Assembly: GCA_947167695.1 (NCBI GenBank)
Contig: CAMVIX010000001.1
Coordinates: forward strand, 8,680 to 72,679
DNA from: an uncultured Clostridiaceae bacterium
Lineage (GTDB): Bacteria; Bacillota; Clostridia; TANB77; CAG-508
Length of the DNA stretch: 64,000 bases
Reading direction: 5' to 3'
Shown: positions 17,087 through 30,653 of the stretch, one piece after another
Layout of the letters: each line of letters begins with the position of its first letter
Position numbering within the stretch: position 1 is the stretch's first letter
Position numbers and translations under genes: made by a program
The notes under the pieces: model-generated
Database searches by the model: none
Seen by the model: only the letters and a program-made list of their open reading frames with translations
Told to the model about the DNA's origin: nothing

Positions 17087-18085
17087 TTATCTTACTACGA
17101 ATCCTACTGTATCATATACTTCACGTAATTTTTTTGAAGCTATTTCTTCTGCTCTATTTGCACCTTTTTCGTAAATATTTCTTAACATTCCCTCATTTTC
17201 TGGTTTATTTAATTCATCATATTTTGTTTGTATTTTTAATAAACAATCTGCAACTACTTCTCCAACAGCCATTTTGAAATTGCCATAGCCTACACTTTCA
17301 AATTCCTTTTCTATTTCCTTTGGAGTTTTTTCTGTTACACATGAATAAATATTTATAAGGTTTTTAATTCCTGGCTGCTCGTCTGAATATCTTACAATAT
17401 TTTCTGAATCTGTAACCGCTTTTTTGAATTTTTTTATAATAGTATCTCTGTCATCCAATAGAGAAATAAATCCATTTGGGTTTGCATCTGATTTAGACAT
17501 CTTTTTTAGTGGATCTTGCAGGCTCATTATTTTTGCTCCAGTTTCTGCAATATATCCATCTGGAATCTTAAATATTTCTTTTCCATATTGGTTATTAAAT
17601 CTTCTGGCAATTACTCTTGCTATCTCTAAGTGTTGCCTTTGGTCTTGCCCTACTGGAACTAAGTCTGGGTCGTATAATAGTATGTCTGCTGCCATTAATA
17701 CTGGATAATCGAATAATCCTACTTTTATTGCATCCTCTTTTTGTGATTTAGATTTATCTTTAAATTGTGTCATTCTACTAAGCTCACCCATGTATGCTGA
17801 ATTATTTAACACCCACGCAAGCTCTGCATGCTCGTGTACGTGTGATTGTACAAAAATTGTATTTATTTCTGGGTCCAAGCCACATGCTATGTATTGCATT
17901 ACTGCTTTTTTTGTGTTTTCTCTTAAATTATTTGGGGCTTGAGTTACTGTAATTGAGTGTAAGTCTGCTATAAAGTACATACATTCATATTCGTGTTGAA
18001 TCTTTACCCAATTTTTAAGTGCTCCAAAATAGTTACCCAATGTTAATGTACCAGATGGCTGAATGCCACTTAAAATTCTCTTCAT
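17087..18085 (-). CDS. trpS: Tryptophan-tRNA ligase
   Basis: Class I HIGH-type signature (SGIQPSG, TLTLGNYFGA) and KMSKS; 332 aa. Confidence 0.9.
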   Translation of the reverse strand: MKRILSGIQPSGTLTLGNYFGALKNWVKIQHEYECMYFIADLHSITVTQAPNNLRENTKKAVMQYIACGLDPEINTIFVQSHVHEHAELAWVLNNSAYMGELSRMTQFKDKSKSQKEDAIKVGLFDYPVLMAADILLYDPDLVPVGQDQRQHLEIARVIARRFNNQYGKEIFKIPDGYIAETGAKIMSLQDPLKKMSKSDANPNGFISLLDDRDTIIKKFKKAVTDSENIVRYSDEQPGIKNLINIYSCVTEKTPKEIEKEFESVGYGNFKMAVGEVVADCLLKIQTKYDELNKPENEGMLRNIYEKGANRAEEIASKKLREVYDTVGFVVR

Positions 18086-18097
18086 GATATTCTCCTC

Positions 18098-19036
18098 TTA
18101 ATCATCTATATTAATTTTTTTCTTAATTATGTATTGTGGCCTTCCTCTTACTTCATCATAAATTCTCGCAATGTATTCGCTAAGCATCCATATCGAAATT
18201 AAAGTTATTCCGAACATAAATGTCATTGTTACCATAAGCGATGTCCATCCTGCTGCTAAATTGTTCCACTTAAAAGCGAATGATAATATTGAATATACTA
18301 GTATAATAAACGAAATAACTACCGATAATCCTCCAAGCACACCTACCAATTTCAGTGGCTTTGTAGAAAAGCTTAATATTCCATCTCCTGCAAGTTTAAG
18401 CATTTTTTTAAGTGGATATTTTGTTTTGCCCGCAAAACGCTCTTTTCTCTCATATTCAAATGGAGTTTGGTTAAAGCCTACCCAGCTAAATAGTCCTCTT
18501 AAAAATTTATTATGTTCTGGAAGTGAATTTACAACATCTATTACTTTTCTATCTACTAATCTAAAATCTCCTGTGTCCTTTGGAATTTCTACATCTGATA
18601 AAGCATTTAATGTTTTATAAAACATTTTAGCAGTAAATAGTTTAAAGCCAGATTCTCCTTCTCTTGATTTTCTCTTTCCATATATAACTTCGTAGCCATT
18701 TTCCCAGTATTTAAGCATCTCAGGTATTAATTCTGGTGGATCTTGCAAATCTGCATCAATAATTACAATTGCATCCCCTGTAACATACTTTATTCCAGCA
18801 GTTACTGCACATTGATGTCCAAAGTTCCTTGAAAAAGATACAACCTTTATTTTTTCATCTTTACTTGCAATTTCTTCTAAGATTTCTAATGTTTTGTCTT
18901 TGCTACCATCATTGATAAAAATAATCTCATGATCGTAATTTTCAAGAGAAGTTAAAACACCCTTAACTCTCTTATAGCATTCTTCTGCTACTTCTTCTTC
19001 ATAATACATTGGAATAACTACAGATACTTTTTTCAT
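18098..19036 (-). CDS. GT2 polyprenyl-phosphate glycosyltransferase (GtrB/CsbB/DPM1-like)
   Basis: VSVVIPMYYEEE...IIFINDGSKD...DADLQDPPE with two C-terminal transmembrane helices. It sits 12 bp upstream of trpS on the same strand. Confidence 0.8.
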   Translation of the reverse strand: MKKVSVVIPMYYEEEVAEECYKRVKGVLTSLENYDHEIIFINDGSKDKTLEILEEIASKDEKIKVVSFSRNFGHQCAVTAGIKYVTGDAIVIIDADLQDPPELIPEMLKYWENGYEVIYGKRKSREGESGFKLFTAKMFYKTLNALSDVEIPKDTGDFRLVDRKVIDVVNSLPEHNKFLRGLFSWVGFNQTPFEYERKERFAGKTKYPLKKMLKLAGDGILSFSTKPLKLVGVLGGLSVVISFIILVYSILSFAFKWNNLAAGWTSLMVTMTFMFGITLISIWMLSEYIARIYDEVRGRPQYIIKKKINIDD

Positions 19037-19149
19037 ACTATCGCTCCATTTCTTATATATAATCCTTTATATCATAGTCCTATTATATATTGCACAGCAT
19101 TAATTGTCAACGGTTACAAAATAATATTTTCCTTAACTAAATAGCCGAA

Positions 19150-19191
19150 GGGACAAGGGGACGTGGGACAAGGGGACGTTGTTTTTGTCCC
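19150..19191. repeat. Tandem GGGACAAGGGGACGT x2 plus a GGGGAC...GTCCC hairpin
   Basis: Read directly in the divergent intergenic region. Confidence 0.5.
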
Positions 19192-19400
19192 ATTATTCAG
19201 TAACTATCAATGCCTAAATAAAATGCTTGCTAATTTGCTTTCCTTGTAATATAATCTTTTTATGAAAAAACAGGAGAAAAGAATGGATAAAGATGACTTT
19301 GATACTTTTTGTGCATAGTCTTTTCTCTTGCCGTTGCATGCTTTATGACTTATTGCATTGAAAAACCCATTTATAAATTAATAATGAAAGGAAAACCAAA

Positions 19401-28734: not shown

Positions 28735-28814
28735 CTGCATTCCTCCCTTTTAAAATGTGTTTTACTCTGAGCCAATGGCAGCATTCCTTAGCAGAAGGTG
28801 TGTCCCCTTAGCTC

Positions 28815-28847
28815 AACAAAAAAACTATGTGTTTTTTTCCCACATAG
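28815..28847 (-). terminator. Intrinsic terminator/attenuator inside the cysS 5' leader
   Basis: CTATGTG-GGAAAAAAA-CACATAG followed by U7 on the minus-strand transcript, about 90 nt upstream of the cysS ATG. Confidence 0.5.
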
Positions 28848-29002
28848 TTCTTATAATCTATTTAAAATGAAATATAATCACTATTGCAGGTATGCTAAAA
28901 TTTACTCATATCTACAACAGATAGAGTATTTAACAAAAGCAACAATTATGATTATTATTTCTTTTACTCATTGTTATTTATCCCCTTCAATTTATGTTTA
29001 TA

Positions 29003-29030
29003 TTATATGCGTTTTTTTTAGCTTTGTCAA
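29003..29030 (-). promoter_or_regulatory. Consensus sigma-A promoter (TTGACA-N17-TATAAT) for the cysS leader
   Basis: Perfect hexamers on the minus strand, about 255 nt upstream of cysS. Confidence 0.55.
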
Positions 29031-29096
29031 CCAGATTTGGAAAATTTTATTGTTATACTGCAAATTTCATGCTATAATTTGAGCAGGTGATTCTAA

Positions 29097-30653
29097 ATGA
29101 AAAAAGAAAATATTGAAAAAGTTATTATAGCAGTTTTAATTATTGTTATGCTTGGAGTGATGTTCTTCTTTCAAACCCAGAAAAAAGGCTTTCACGAAGA
29201 TGAAATATATACATCTATTTCTTCTGTAAATCCTTTAAATGGACTTATGTGGGCATATGGAGAACCATGGGAAAATAAGGTTCCAATATGGCTTTCGCGC
29301 GAATACGTAACAGATTTTATTACTTTAAGCAAGGATAATTATTTAAATTTGCAATCCGTATATCAAAACCAAGCATATGATAATCATCCACCGTTTTTTT
29401 ATGCATTAGTGCATTTTTCTAGTATGCTATTTGGTGGACAGTTTACAAAATATAATGTATTTATTGTAAATGCAACCACTTTTGTCCTAAGCTGTCTTGT
29501 AATTTGCAAGATATTTAAGTTGCTTGGCAAAGAAAAGCTACAATATGCAGGACTTATTTTATATGGCCTGTCTATGGGAACTATTTCAATGGTTTTATAT
29601 CAAAGAATGTATATGCTACTTACTTTGTTTGTTTTACTGTATTTGTATTATACTTTTAAAATATACAAAAATAATTTTGCCTTTAGCAAAAAGGATATGA
29701 TTTTTCTAGGAATCATAACTGTATTAGGCTTTTTAACCCAGTATTTCTTTGCAATTTATGCCGTTTTCTTATTTGGATTAATGATAATTCAAATGATTAG
29801 AAAAAAAACTGGCTGGAGAAAAATATTAATCTATCTAGGATGCCATGTCATTTACGCTATAATTGGTGTTTTGCTCTTTATTCCCTGCATAAATCACCTA
29901 CTTTATTCAGATAGAGGAATAACCAATTTAGGCAATGGTGAATTCTTTACACATTGTTGGCAATATTTAGTACACCTTGCATATGCTTTCTCAATTAATA
30001 GTACAAATAGTCTATTACTTGCAGGCATATTAATAATTTTTGCACAGCTAATTATATATTTATTTGTAAAGTCAAAAGACAAATTTATAATATCATTACT
30101 AGTAATTCCTAGTGTACTGTTTTTCTTTGTAGCAGTTAAAATGACCTCCTTTCAGGAATTAAGATATGTTATGCCTATGATACCATTTATAACAATACTC
30201 ATTATATTTGTATTAGATTCTCTTAACTATAAAGAAGTAACCGTAACTATAATTTCTGTTTTGTTGGTATTAGTTGGGTTTATTACCTCAAAACCACTAT
30301 TTTTGTATAGCGATTATCAAAGATGTCTTGATATTGCTGAAGAAAACAAAGATAAGTCTTTTGTGTATGTTTATGATAACTTCTTCTGCCATATGCAGAG
30401 CGTACCTGAAATGATGATTTATGAAAAGTCACTTATTATAAATGCTAACGAAGATGAATTAAAATATGTGATAAATAATGAAGAGTTGAATAGTGAAAGC
30501 TCCTACGTTTTGTGCATTAAAAATTACATGGATAATGAGAACATTATTAATCAGATTAAAGAAAAATCTGATTTTAAAAATGTAGAGCAAATTTATGAAG
30601 GACCTAATTCTCATTATGAGGTTGGTAACAATTTGTATTTGGTAAGTAAATGA
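29097..30653 (+). CDS. GT-C glycosyltransferase, PMT_2/ArnT-like
   Basis: GFHEDEIYT motif after TM1 and more than 10 transmembrane helices. Confidence 0.55.
   Translation: MKKENIEKVIIAVLIIVMLGVMFFFQTQKKGFHEDEIYTSISSVNPLNGLMWAYGEPWENKVPIWLSREYVTDFITLSKDNYLNLQSVYQNQAYDNHPPFFYALVHFSSMLFGGQFTKYNVFIVNATTFVLSCLVICKIFKLLGKEKLQYAGLILYGLSMGTISMVLYQRMYMLLTLFVLLYLYYTFKIYKNNFAFSKKDMIFLGIITVLGFLTQYFFAIYAVFLFGLMIIQMIRKKTGWRKILIYLGCHVIYAIIGVLLFIPCINHLLYSDRGITNLGNGEFFTHCWQYLVHLAYAFSINSTNSLLLAGILIIFAQLIIYLFVKSKDKFIISLLVIPSVLFFFVAVKMTSFQELRYVMPMIPFITILIIFVLDSLNYKEVTVTIISVLLVLVGFITSKPLFLYSDYQRCLDIAEENKDKSFVYVYDNFFCHMQSVPEMMIYEKSLIINANEDELKYVINNEELNSESSYVLCIKNYMDNENIINQIKEKSDFKNVEQIYEGPNSHYEVGNNLYLVSK

Follow-up and report, generated by a model that had tools for sequence, protein, structure and literature searches.

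A predicted portable GtrB and GT-C glycosylation cassette interleaved with aminoacyl-tRNA synthetase genes in an uncultured Clostridiaceae bacterium

The window analyzed here, a stretch of 64,000 nucleotides from an uncultured gut Clostridiaceae bacterium, appears to contain a portable glycosylation cassette, whose conserved unit is a GtrB-type enzyme plus three GT-C glycosyltransferases (DUF2298/STT3-like, GT39 PMT-like and ALG3/PimE-like). The best explanation as a whole, to which we assign a probability of about 0.6, is that protein O-glycosylation is the most likely role of the cassette, that a fourth GT-C gene close by is separate from it, and that the neighboring aminoacyl-tRNA synthetase (aaRS) genes are not part of it. 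The order of gtrB and the divergently transcribed (acyltransferase)-DUF2298-PMT-GT-C #3 genes recurs in four related contigs (GCA_016648615.1, L025, L032 and L113), and the flanks of these cassettes are of three different kinds. This recurrence as a unit argues for more than chance.

All nine genes of the original prediction were recovered in the window with the same coordinates by ORF, Pfam and NCBIfam checks. The four membrane proteins, designated GT-C #1 to #4, are placed in the GT-C superfamily by Pfam, AlphaFold2/Foldseek and profile comparison, and a reading of them as transporters was not borne out. A direct match to a Pfam GT-C family was obtained for #2 only; #1, #3 and #4 had no significant one, so that predicted structures and profile comparison were needed to place them. 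Comparison with homologues showed that acidic residues near the N-terminal end of each of the four are invariant; they probably sit in the first outward loop.

The gtrB gene (18098..19036, minus strand; PF00535, E 6e-36) encodes a GT2 polyprenyl-phosphate sugar synthase with a GT-A fold and C-terminal transmembrane helices. The match of its product to Synechocystis GtrB (PDB 5ekp) covers residues 4-305 with E 9e-88, so that the earlier GtrB call holds and the protein is a genuine, full-length GtrB-type polyprenyl-phosphate glycosyltransferase; the products from L025, L032 and L113 are 87-92% identical to it. A sigma-70-type promoter (TTGACA-17-TATAAT, 12/12 match; 19082..19110, minus strand) lies about 45 nt 5' of the gtrB ATG, where neither a leader ORF nor a T-box was found. 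The tryptophan--tRNA ligase gene trpS (17087..18085, minus strand; TIGR00233 351 bits, cut-off 177) follows gtrB after a 12-nt spacer, TAA-GAGGAGAATATC-ATG, which has no hairpin, and its ribosome-binding site is GAGGAG. A separate trpS promoter within the 3' end of gtrB would have spoken against the proposed cotranscription, and no site of at least 9/12 was present across the final 600 bp of gtrB. The junction is shared with L032, where a trpS of 83% identity occupies the equivalent position. From this arrangement, trpS is most likely the second gene of the gtrB unit and cotranscribed with gtrB. It would be driven by a strong constitutive promoter, and appears to be the only one of the four aaRS genes so driven.

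GT-C #2 (21314..22987, plus strand) is a predicted GT39 PMT-like protein O-glycosyltransferase. Its matches to PF16192 (87 bits), PF02366 (70 bits) and PF13231 (37 bits) all exceed the Pfam gathering cut-offs, and D170-E171 is invariant across 18 homologues. After the first transmembrane helix it carries an additional extracytoplasmic domain of ~110 residues, with a weak F5/8-type-C hint (E 0.06). GT-C #3 (23007..24212, plus strand; 401 aa) belongs by its AlphaFold2 model (pLDDT 91) to GT-C class B, with Foldseek matches to ALG6 (TM 0.64), ALG3 (0.62/0.64), GPI-MT1 and PimE, and by profile it matches the PDB GPI mannosyltransferase 1 with E 2e-9. Some of its homologues contain PF09594 (GT87), and #3 itself fell below this model in the Pfam search. 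Genes like #3 adjoin PMT-like genes in 9 loci; the pair is found in L021/L022 and in the archaeal L019 and L020, and Halobacteriota archaea have PMT plus ALG3-like pairs too, in one case fused into a single protein. In L015 the two form a single fused ORF of 897 aa, with genes for a small EamA-like membrane protein and a GT2 after it. Such fusion and adjacency suggest consecutive steps in one pathway, and argue against four separate targets; #3 is predicted to elongate the glycan.

GT-C #1 (19401..21306, plus strand) is a DUF2298-family protein with a soluble domain at the C-terminus. The best 25 Foldseek matches of its AlphaFold2 model (pLDDT 85.7) against the PDB were all GT-C enzymes (STT3 at 1e-8, DPY19, PglB, AglB), and with AftA it gave a TM of 0.53, which points to GT-C class A (STT3/DPY19/AftA-like). 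PF10060 was found in some homologues of 62-73% identity. The gene predicted at 19401 is present, but not as a single ORF: the ATG at 19401 opens a frame of only 91 codons, and the main ORF (19522-21306) is in a different frame. Comparison with L025 and L032 located a single inserted base, a C, near 19526. Directly 5', positions 19221..19404 (plus strand) are the deletion scar of an Acyl_transf_3 gene, retaining its promoter/5' region and final ~34 codons: residues 348-381 of the L032 acyltransferase matched 19303-19404 by tblastn (E 1.5e-6), and 19221-19287 matched by blastn the L032/L113 region just 5' of the acyltransferase gene. The gene is intact in L032 and L113; it was ancestral to the cassette and has been lost by deletion in the window. 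A promoter-like site in the scar (19227-19255) now points at GT-C #1.

With the frameshift and the deletion, this genome may lack a complete pathway. A decaying locus, in which the #1 frameshift is real, the acyltransferase is lost and only gtrB, #2 and #3 still work, is possible, if tentative. The inserted base lies outside any homopolymer, the acyltransferase has left its scar, and #1 is likewise truncated in the public annotation of this 72.9-kb contig (P0241). However, a histidine kinase gene and the housekeeping gene tex are also split in the window, the latter by a traceable one-base insertion, which suggests assembly errors in a metagenome-derived contig, and the rest of #1, 594 codons, is undamaged, with 71% identity to L032.

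In the protein O-glycosylation pathway that we favor, the GtrB-type enzyme would load a sugar onto polyprenyl phosphate at the inner membrane face, as its homology indicates. The lipid-linked sugar would then be flipped, and, judging from their folds, the three GT-C enzymes would use it outside the cell. GT-C #2 would begin the glycan by attaching a sugar to Ser/Thr of proteins that are secreted or lie at the cell surface, #3 would extend it, and #1 would add one more step or act on a different acceptor. The ancestral cassette also included an O-acyltransferase. Against this reading, a survey by Pfam and window gene content showed no GtrA-type flippase in the gene cluster, and no Ser/Thr-rich target gene adjoins the cassette. 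Also against it, PMT-like homologues about 50% identical to #2 stand alone in 17 other loci, as do DUF2298 homologues of about 60% identity in L030 and L031, so that these enzymes can work unclustered.

The logic and enzyme classes of this pathway are those of protein O-mannosylation in actinobacteria, in which Ppm1 (GT2), Pmt (GT39) and PimE (GT87) have polyprenyl-P-mannose as a common donor, Pmt attaching the initial sugar to secreted proteins at Ser/Thr and the class-B GT-C (PimE or a different GT87 member) lengthening the glycan (PMC12757957). GT-C #2 likewise passes the PMT Pfam models and the fold of #3 resembles PimE, ALG3 and PIG-M. The cassette differs from the actinobacterial pathway in being a compact gene set to which a DUF2298 GT-C and, in its ancestral form, an acyltransferase are added. 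With the Pmt equivalog model of actinobacteria #2 reaches no more than 65 bits (cut-off 800), and it has the extra N-terminal extracytoplasmic domain; #3 misses the GT87 model. Within the Clostridia, all glycosylation of extracellular proteins in Caldicellulosiruptor bescii depends on the GT39 protein Cbes_1864 and is abolished by its deletion (PMC6151902). Cbes_1864 consists of a signal-anchor helix, a carbohydrate-binding-module-like loop domain (aa 32-124) and an ArnT/PMT-like core (PMC6151902). From this published description its layout is apparently that of #2, with 556 aa against 557 aa and the module-like domain where #2 has its extra domain. Cbes_1864 lies in a four-gene cluster with Cbes_1861-1863, neighbors undescribed in PMC6151902, within a cellulase locus, whereas no cellulase is seen in the window.

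Streptococcal GtrB/PgfS with YfhO-type GT-C partners (PgtC2, PgfM1/M2) carries out protein O-glycosylation, and CsbB-YfhO of B. subtilis and Listeria glycosylates teichoic acid. Both share with the cassette the GT2 donor family and a two-step lipid-linked extracytoplasmic mechanism (PMC12041528). The comparison with Firmicute CsbB/YfhO made in the original prediction is loose: YfhO was matched by none of the four membrane proteins in Pfam searches. The best NCBIfam model for the gtrB product was the PgfS equivalog, at 316 bits and under its cut-off of 500.

The window carries rmlABCD and genes for Wzx, Wzy, a pyruvyl transferase and additional GTs at 43.4-62.5 kb. This rhamnose/pyruvate polysaccharide locus lies 13-33 kb away, and its product could be the real acceptor. 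It is rather unlikely, in our assessment, that the cassette decorates a cell-wall glycopolymer of this kind (perhaps the polysaccharide encoded at 43-62 kb) and not proteins, in the manner of the GtrB/flippase/GT-C side-chain systems of streptococcal and lactococcal rhamnose polysaccharides or teichoic acids. The Firmicute side-chain module is normally a GtrB plus a polytopic GT-C (PMC12041528), the polysaccharide genes are at hand, and relatives of #3 (ALG3, ALG6, PIG-M, PimE) and some of #1 (AftA, ArnT) use glycolipid or glycan acceptors. Against this, #2 exceeds the Pfam cut-offs for PMT and PMT_4TMC and retains the DE motif, its closest characterized Clostridia analogue glycosylates proteins, YfhO as the usual teichoic-acid GT-C is matched by none of the four, and the polysaccharide locus is at least 13 kb off with unrelated genes between.

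GT-C #4 (29097..30653, plus strand; 518 aa) is a distant PMT/PMT_2-like GT-C. By hhalign it aligned with a PMT-like profile over 277 columns (probability 83%, E 8e-6), its match to NF047440 (E 1.3e-8) was below the model cut-off, and the motif H33-E34-D35-E36 is invariant among homologues. The earlier label "PMT_2-like" stands as a distant likeness but is weakly backed, PMT_2 being matched by 5/37 homologues and Glyco_transf_22 by 4/37. Between cysS and the response regulator the gene is missing in L025 and L032, the two relatives that have kept this gap. Its homologues are solo in L026-L029; those of 59-61% identity are lone genes amid housekeeping genes, between uvrC and rRNA-modification genes, in both surroundings examined. 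By its gene neighborhoods, #4 is independent of the conserved cassette, and is probably a separate, widely conserved housekeeping GT-C close by only through happenstance.

The original prediction had one GtrB feeding four clustered GT-C enzymes with different targets, and took the aaRS genes among them to be meaningful. The five glycosylation genes do lie inside 12.6 kb, all four membrane proteins are GT-C, and L032 keeps the overall gene order apart from #4. This model is nevertheless quite improbable, given that #4 is missing at this site in L025 and L032 and given the fusion and adjacency of genes like #2 and #3. The aaRS genes lie inside 11.7 kb, and the chance of four being so close in one genome is about 3e-3, our own rough inference, not tool output, which assumes 20 aaRS genes scattered over about 2.5 Mb. 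The clustering is thus unusual in any single genome, but conserved only in the closest relatives: interleaving is present in two or three, rearranged in one of these, and absent in two (L113 and GCA_016648615.1), whose cassettes have no aaRS gene beside them. An aaRS gene directly follows gtrB in three of five cassettes (the window, L032 and L025), which chance does not fully explain; in L025 this gene is hisS, with 66% identity to that of the window, and not trpS. The interleaving is specific to this lineage, and the four aaRS genes are probably neighbors through local genome history, outside the glycosylation system.

The cysS, asnS and hisS genes are read from the opposite strand, toward the cassette GT-C genes, and are separated from them by a bidirectional intrinsic terminator (24195..24239; 20-bp perfect stem, T-runs on both strands) between #3 and hisS. 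The hisS gene (24222..25538, minus strand; TIGR00442 405 bits, cut-off 287), positioned alike in L032, begins 75 nt past the end of asnS, and the spacer shows no terminator signal. The asnS gene (25614..27005, minus strand; NF003037 619 bits, cut-off 414) is 88-91% identical to the L025 and L032 copies and has a promoter-like site at 27061-27033 that is kept in relatives. For cysS (27271..28740, minus strand; TIGR00435 522 bits, cut-off 340), a T-box would be expected in a Firmicute, but none was found 5' of it, nor any Rfam match in the leader. The region 28815..29030 (minus strand) instead has a perfect promoter (29030-29002), a leader ORF, MSKRNNNHNCCFC*, at about 28971-28930, a P1 hairpin, an invariant region 2 and a terminator at about 28852-28815. 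The ORF is conserved as MSFLRNNNHNCCGI* in L032 and MEILKNIINNCNC* in L025, with 13-14 codons and Cys codons among the final four. Alternative folds were computed, and the consensus structure has one compensatory pair. These features suggest that cysS is controlled by a conserved Cys-codon-rich leader-peptide attenuator with its own promoter. This promoter, leader and terminator, with the synteny, argue for independence of the aaRS genes from the cassette. The leader resembles the Rhodobacterales cysS attenuator uORFC-8-2 in its short uORF, tandem Cys codons in a stem, and intrinsic terminator after the uORF directly 5' of cysS (PMC8632094); the two differ in phylum and are unrelated in sequence.

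The cysS-asnS spacer contains a nested palindromic element (27079..27215; inverted repeats I2 and I4) with an RNA fold z-score of -4.6 and no second copy within the window. The 67-bp spacer of L025 has no such element, and that of L032 has two (z -10.3).

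All nine genes of the original prediction were confirmed by ORF listing and profile searches in this DNA, of which the G+C content is about 30%. On the minus strand lie trpS (17087-18085; TIGR00233, 351 bits), the GT2 glycosyltransferase gene gtrB (18098-19036; PF00535), hisS (24222-25538; TIGR00442, 405 bits), asnS (25614-27005; NF003037, 619 bits) and cysS (27271-28740; TIGR00435, 522 bits). The four aminoacyl-tRNA synthetases (aaRSs) scored above the equivalog cut-offs, and therefore they are genuine synthetases, as opposed to paralogues of the HisZ or AsnA kind. The plus strand encodes four membrane proteins, i.e., a large protein 1 (main ORF 19522-21306), the PMT-like protein 2 (21314-22987; PF02366, PF16192 and PF13231, each above the gathering cut-off), protein 3 of 401 aa (23007-24212) and protein 4 of 518 aa (29097-30653). 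The gene for protein 1 was present as predicted, but the proposed start at 19401 does not share the frame of the main ORF. Alignment with the homologues from two related contigs, L025 and L032, revealed one extra base near 19526, and without this base the protein would read ...GNLIAMCGIIIP. In the public annotation of this 72.9-kb contig, protein 1 is truncated as well (P0241). Two further genes in the window are split, those for a 7TM-PAS histidine kinase (14001-15837, split at about 15000-15030) and the housekeeping protein Tex (32076-34266, at about 32590), and for both protein 1 and tex the split was traced to one extra base that does not lie in a long homopolymer. Because these two other genes are also split, an assembly error is as likely as a real pseudogene for protein 1, and the three splits together may come either from assembly errors or from a genome that is accumulating pseudogenes.

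The GT2 protein contains the GT-A catalytic domain PF00535 (E 5.7e-36; 124 bits against a cut-off of 23) and matched the solved GtrB 5ekp at E 9e-88 over residues 4-305 of 312, including the C-terminal membrane helices. It also matched ArnC 9hwj (E 6e-44). Homology thus identifies it as a GtrB-type enzyme that makes a polyprenyl-phosphate-sugar. The best NCBIfam model was PgfS, below its cut-off (316 bits against 500), and the equivalog level of ArnC was not reached (176 against 529); identity with PgfS or ArnC at the equivalog level would imply a sugar specificity. A GtrA-type flippase was sought and was not found in the window's cluster. Downstream of trpS and a GreA-like gene, the minus strand at 15943-16347 encodes a protein of 134 aa that has the look of a small and hydrophobic membrane protein with several passes, has no family assignment and is 88% conserved in L032. 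Speculatively, this protein is a candidate for the lipid-sugar flippase that was not found.

Among the four membrane proteins, only protein 2 was recognized directly by Pfam, and proteins 1, 3 and 4 were placed via homologue sets, alignments, structure prediction and profile comparison (for protein 4, without a structure model). Protein 2 scored 70.1 bits for PF02366 and 87.1 bits for PF16192, against gathering scores of 22.7 and 32.4, respectively. Its residues D170 and E171, in the motif YFDEIYF, were invariant across 18 homologues, down to 29% identity. It is not an equivalog of the actinobacterial Pmt (NF058602, 65.5 bits against a cut-off of 800). The structure model of protein 1 had a pLDDT of 85.7, and the top 25 Foldseek matches were all GT-C proteins, such as STT3 (1e-8), DPY19, PglB, AglB, AftA (TM 0.53) and ArnT. 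Some homologues of protein 1 with 62-73% identity (e.g., P0243, P0245 and P0250) carry PF10060 (DUF2298), and this family was not matched by protein 1 of the window, including its frameshift-repaired version. The model places protein 1 among the class-A GT-C enzymes and gives it a soluble domain at the C-terminus. The model of protein 3 was confident (pLDDT 91), and its Foldseek neighbours in the PDB were ALG6 (2e-5, TM 0.64), ALG3 (TM 0.62/0.64), GPI mannosyltransferase I (GPI-MT1), PIG-U and PimE. The glycosyltransferases among these neighbours all use polyprenyl-phosphate monosaccharide donors, and PIG-U is a transamidase subunit. The sequence profile of protein 3 matched GPI mannosyltransferase 1 (E 2e-9). 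No Pfam family, including PF09594 (GT87), was found for it at E up to 10, and only a minority of its homologues have PF09594, PF14897 or PF06728. The predicted fold and the profile match place protein 3 in class B of the GT-C enzymes. Protein 4 aligned to a PMT-like profile (hhalign probability 83%, E 8e-6, 277 columns) and matched the NCBIfam model NF047440, 'putative glycosyltransferase', at E 1.3e-8 with 34 bits, below the cut-off of 200. It had no Pfam match, PF13231 included. Five of its 37 homologues match PMT_2 (best E 1.3e-6), and the families PMT_2, Glyco_transf_22, GT87 or DUF6541 are matched by a minority of them. By these profile comparisons, protein 4 belongs to the GT-C superfamily, with its family-level placement unassigned.

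In Firmicutes, GT-Cs of the YfhO type are the partners of CsbB/GtrB. No match to the YfhO Pfam model was obtained with any of the four proteins, and for proteins 1, 3 and 4 this holds at E up to 10. Single-sequence PDB searches with these three gave no matches, profile searches with proteins 1 and 4 gave nothing useful, and hhalign detected no similarity between protein 1 and PMT or between proteins 3 and 4. Alignments showed that early acidic residues are kept in each family; D170-E171 of protein 2, H33-E34-D35-E36 of protein 4 and D96 of protein 1 are invariant, and D42 of protein 3 is nearly so. These residues would be located in the first outward loop. The possibility that the membrane proteins are unrelated transporters was thus not borne out, from the Pfam matches of protein 2, the models and profiles of proteins 1 and 3 and the profile alignment of protein 4. 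With these assignments and the 5ekp match, the proposal of a polyprenyl-phosphate glycosylation system holds. The GT-C enzymes are predicted by homology to use polyprenyl-phosphate-sugar donors outside the membrane.

The gene contexts of homologues were collected from the contigs encoding them, one genome scan, and tblastn and hmmsearch on the fetched loci. In all four related contigs, gtrB is divergent from the genes for proteins 1-2-3. L032 has trpS-gtrB, acyltransferase-1-2-3, hisS-asnS-cysS and a response regulator gene, with the aaRS genes as in the window, and L025 has (hisS)-gtrB, 1-2-3, asnS-cysS and the response regulator gene, with the aaRS genes rearranged. The cassette is located between signal peptidase I genes and holB in L113, and between desulfoferrodoxin and NERD/ThiF genes in GCA_016648615.1, with no aaRS gene nearby in either case. 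An Acyl_transf_3 gene precedes the gene for protein 1 in L032 and L113, and the window retains a scar of it, with the last ~34 codons at 19303-19404 (E 1.5e-6) and the upstream region at 19221-19287. Beside this scar, in the spacer between the divergent gtrB and protein 1 genes, a tandem direct repeat of GGGACAAGGGGACGT (two copies) is followed by TGTTTTTGTCCC, which is able to pair with the repeat (19143-19190). Identity to the window in the relatives was 79-97% for the flanking housekeeping proteins (except for HisS of L025), 87-92% for GtrB and 66-73% for the three GT-C proteins. Judged from these identities, proteins 1-3 evolve faster than the flanks and GtrB, as is common among surface-modifying enzymes.

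The four GT-C proteins had been regarded as one system, and this part of the prediction was not sustained, because protein 4 is missing from the gap between cysS and the response regulator gene in both L025 and L032. In spore-forming Clostridia, the two homologues of protein 4 with examined surroundings (59-61% identical) are solo genes, with uvrC on one side and rRNA-modification genes on the other. The contig L027 is a mirror-image palindrome, in which the gene for a protein 4 homologue and all its neighbours are duplicated and inverted around ~5660, most likely by an assembly artefact. At greater distance the cassette genes are often found unlinked, with PMT-like genes solo in 17 loci, DUF2298 in L030 and L031, and the protein 3 family in L023 and L024. 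The pair of PMT-like and protein 3-like genes is adjacent in L021/L022, and it is kept together in all three archaeal loci, as adjacent genes in L019 and L020 and as a fusion in L015. In the latter, from a Halobacteriota single-cell genome (206-2899, 2916-3990 and 4470-6173), the protein 3-like and PMT-like GT-Cs form one 897-aa ORF, and downstream of it are encoded a 120-aa EamA-like membrane protein, which is a candidate flippase, and then a 236-aa GT2. An arginyl-tRNA synthetase gene adjoins the fusion on the opposite strand. That the pair is retained in both bacteria and archaea, and is fused in one locus, makes a good case for a single pathway that involves both enzymes, and it provides an independent argument that GT39 and class-B GT-C enzymes work together. 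As far as our searches show, a cassette composed of GtrB, DUF2298, GT39 and class-B GT-C, optionally with the acyltransferase, has not been described.

We infer that the cassette is probably a protein O-glycosylation pathway parallel to the actinobacterial route. That route consists of Ppm1 (GT2), Pmt (GT39), which starts the glycan, and PimE (GT87), which elongates it with the same donor (PMC12757957), and the cassette has a parallel set of GT2, GT39 and PimE-like enzymes. Protein 2 is predicted to move the sugar from the polyprenyl-phosphate-sugar onto Ser/Thr of proteins, the class-B protein 3 probably elongates the glycan, and the DUF2298-type protein 1 could perform a third transfer step or serve another acceptor. 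Cbes_1864 of C. bescii, with 556 residues, has a carbohydrate-binding-module-like domain at 32-124 before an ArnT/PMT-like core, and all extracellular protein glycosylation in this organism requires it (PMC6151902). Protein 2 is almost the same size (557 aa) and has an extra segment of ~110 residues at the same place, with a weak F5/8-type-C hint (E 0.06). To our knowledge, Cbes_1864 is the only characterised GT39 of the Clostridia, and GT39 protein O-glycosylation outside the Actinobacteria rests on this single Caldicellulosiruptor knockout; we know of no partners for that enzyme.

The main rival is that the cassette adds side chains to a wall polysaccharide, as in the streptococcal and lactococcal three-component systems. 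The rmlABCD/Wzx/Wzy/pyruvyl-transferase locus at 43-62 kb of the window lends it plausibility, and the actinobacterial parallel and the likeness to Cbes_1864 point to proteins as the acceptor. This surface-polysaccharide locus (43439-62521, minus strand) encodes a UDP-glucose dehydrogenase, RmlB/C/A/D, a Wzx-type flippase, an SDR, a TPP enzyme, a polysaccharide pyruvyl transferase, a Wzy-like polymerase, a WbsX GT, a GT2 and an epimerase, and its product is a possible alternative acceptor of the GT-C enzymes. For the reading of the cassette as a complete and portable machine for lipid-linked protein O-glycosylation, whose core of GT39 and class-B GT-C is common to Halobacteriota, we estimate a probability of roughly 0.3, and it is offered tentatively. 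If it is true, it would give the first function for DUF2298, for which a literature search returned nothing relevant and the locus offers a functional lead. The pairs in L019, L020 and L015 would then be candidate enzymes for protein O-glycosylation in Halobacteriota, where, as far as we know, none has been identified so far. The locus and its relatives define a conserved partner set of a GtrB donor synthase, a class-B GT-C, a DUF2298 GT-C and an ancestral acyltransferase, and this turns a lone GT39 enzyme into a testable pathway in abundant, uncultured gut Clostridia.

The interleaving with aaRS genes had been considered unusual, and a meaningful association of these genes with glycosylation was not supported. 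Two of the four related contigs have the cassette without aaRS genes and the aaRS order varies, so that we read the interleaving as lineage-specific synteny, and for the most part the observation on the aaRS genes is ordinary synteny. Four aaRS genes within 11.7 kb are improbable for one genome (~3e-3, a rough estimate), and not remarkable given how many genomes have been scanned by now. The strand opposite to the GT-C operon carries cysS, asnS and hisS, which run convergently with it, and a perfect 20-bp bidirectional terminator (24195-24239) lies between hisS and the protein 3 gene. The predicted co-transcription of trpS with gtrB is probable. The spacer is 12 nt without a hairpin (TAA-GAGGAGAATATC-ATG), the same junction occurs in L032, no promoter-like site of at least 9/12 was present in the last 600 bp of gtrB, and a perfect promoter lies upstream of gtrB-trpS at 19110-19082; co-transcription is the best reading of these features. 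In L025, hisS instead of trpS occupies the position after gtrB (3-644, minus strand). This hisS is 66% identical to that of the window, while asnS, cysS and gtrB of L025 are 79-91% identical, and the divergence suggests two hisS lineages or a replacement event in the clade.

T-boxes are the expected control of aaRS genes in Firmicutes. No T-box (RF00230) was found before trpS, hisS, asnS or cysS, no Rfam family matched the window at the gathering score, and none matched in 16000-32000 at E up to 5. The cysS gene has a perfect promoter, TTGACA-17-TATAAT (29030-29002), and a leader of 255 nt. Within this leader (28815-29030, minus strand), a tiny ORF with a ribosome-binding site (~28971-28930) encodes MSKRNNNHNCCFC before its stop codon, ending in CCFC, and is followed by a hairpin, a nearly invariant segment and a 12-bp terminator with a T-run. 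The layout is shared by L032 (15201-15400) and L025 (9789-9990), of which the ORFs encode MSFLRNNNHNCCGI and MEILKNIINNCNC, respectively, each up to a stop codon. The three ORFs have 13-14 codons, with two or three Cys codons within the last four. The RNA 3' of the ORF is almost invariant in all three, against differences of 10-34% between the encoded proteins, and one compensatory change from A-U to G-C was observed in the terminator. In the fold of the free nascent RNA, the codon region pairs with the invariant segment in the window and L032; in L025, the antiterminator is already formed. When a ribosome was masked on the Cys codons, CCUGCAAUAG of the invariant segment paired with the terminator 5' arm CUAUGUGGG in all three sequences (P ~1.0), forming an antiterminator that is mutually exclusive with the terminator. 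From these three sequences, the cysS leader resembles a Firmicute Cys attenuator of the ribosome-mediated type, and the aaRS neighbourhood would thus have exposed a cysS under leader-peptide control, not T-box control. A Cys-codon uORF attenuator upstream of cysS, uORFC-8-2, is already known from Rhodobacterales (PMC8632094), and therefore the leader would be an independent Firmicute variant and not a new principle. One metagenome scan with CysS as the query returned only distant CysS (up to 55% identity), without another instance of either the leader or the locus, and a covariance model of the leader found no additional copy in 940 kb of sequence. Among the unrelated cysS upstream regions from these distant loci, a small ORF with neighbouring Cys codons (C.?C pattern) was present in 2 of 56.

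The leader peptide, with NNNHNCC, contains Asn and His as well, which are the amino acids used by the products of asnS and hisS further downstream, and L025 has neither a leader His codon nor an operon-linked hisS. The gap between asnS and hisS is 75 nt without a terminator. That the leader senses Asn, His and Cys for a cysS-asnS-hisS operon is tempting but weak, and was downgraded, because in L025 the conserved ATAATCA falls in another reading frame, AAT codons are to be expected by default at 30% GC, asnS carries its own conserved promoter-like site, and only three sequences are available; the Asn and His codons may be a coincidence. The cysS-asnS spacer contains nested, relatively GC-rich palindromic elements, one in the window (27079-27215; RNA fold z -4.6; no second copy in the window) and two in L032 (13330-13700; z -10.3), and none is present in the 67-bp spacer of L025. 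They may be small mobile palindromes or elements of RNA processing or stability.

A two-module NRPS of 2509 aa is encoded at 6494-14023 (plus strand) and is accompanied by an AMP-binding gene at 1095-2267. The aaRS genes were considered as its resistance or partner genes, and this idea was rejected, because several genes, the histidine kinase among them, lie in between, and in L032 the order of the aaRS genes is unchanged and the NRPS is absent from the corresponding position. By Pfam, the domain order is C-A-T-C-A-T-R with a terminal reductase, an architecture reported in gut Clostridia that produce dipeptide aldehydes or pyrazinones.
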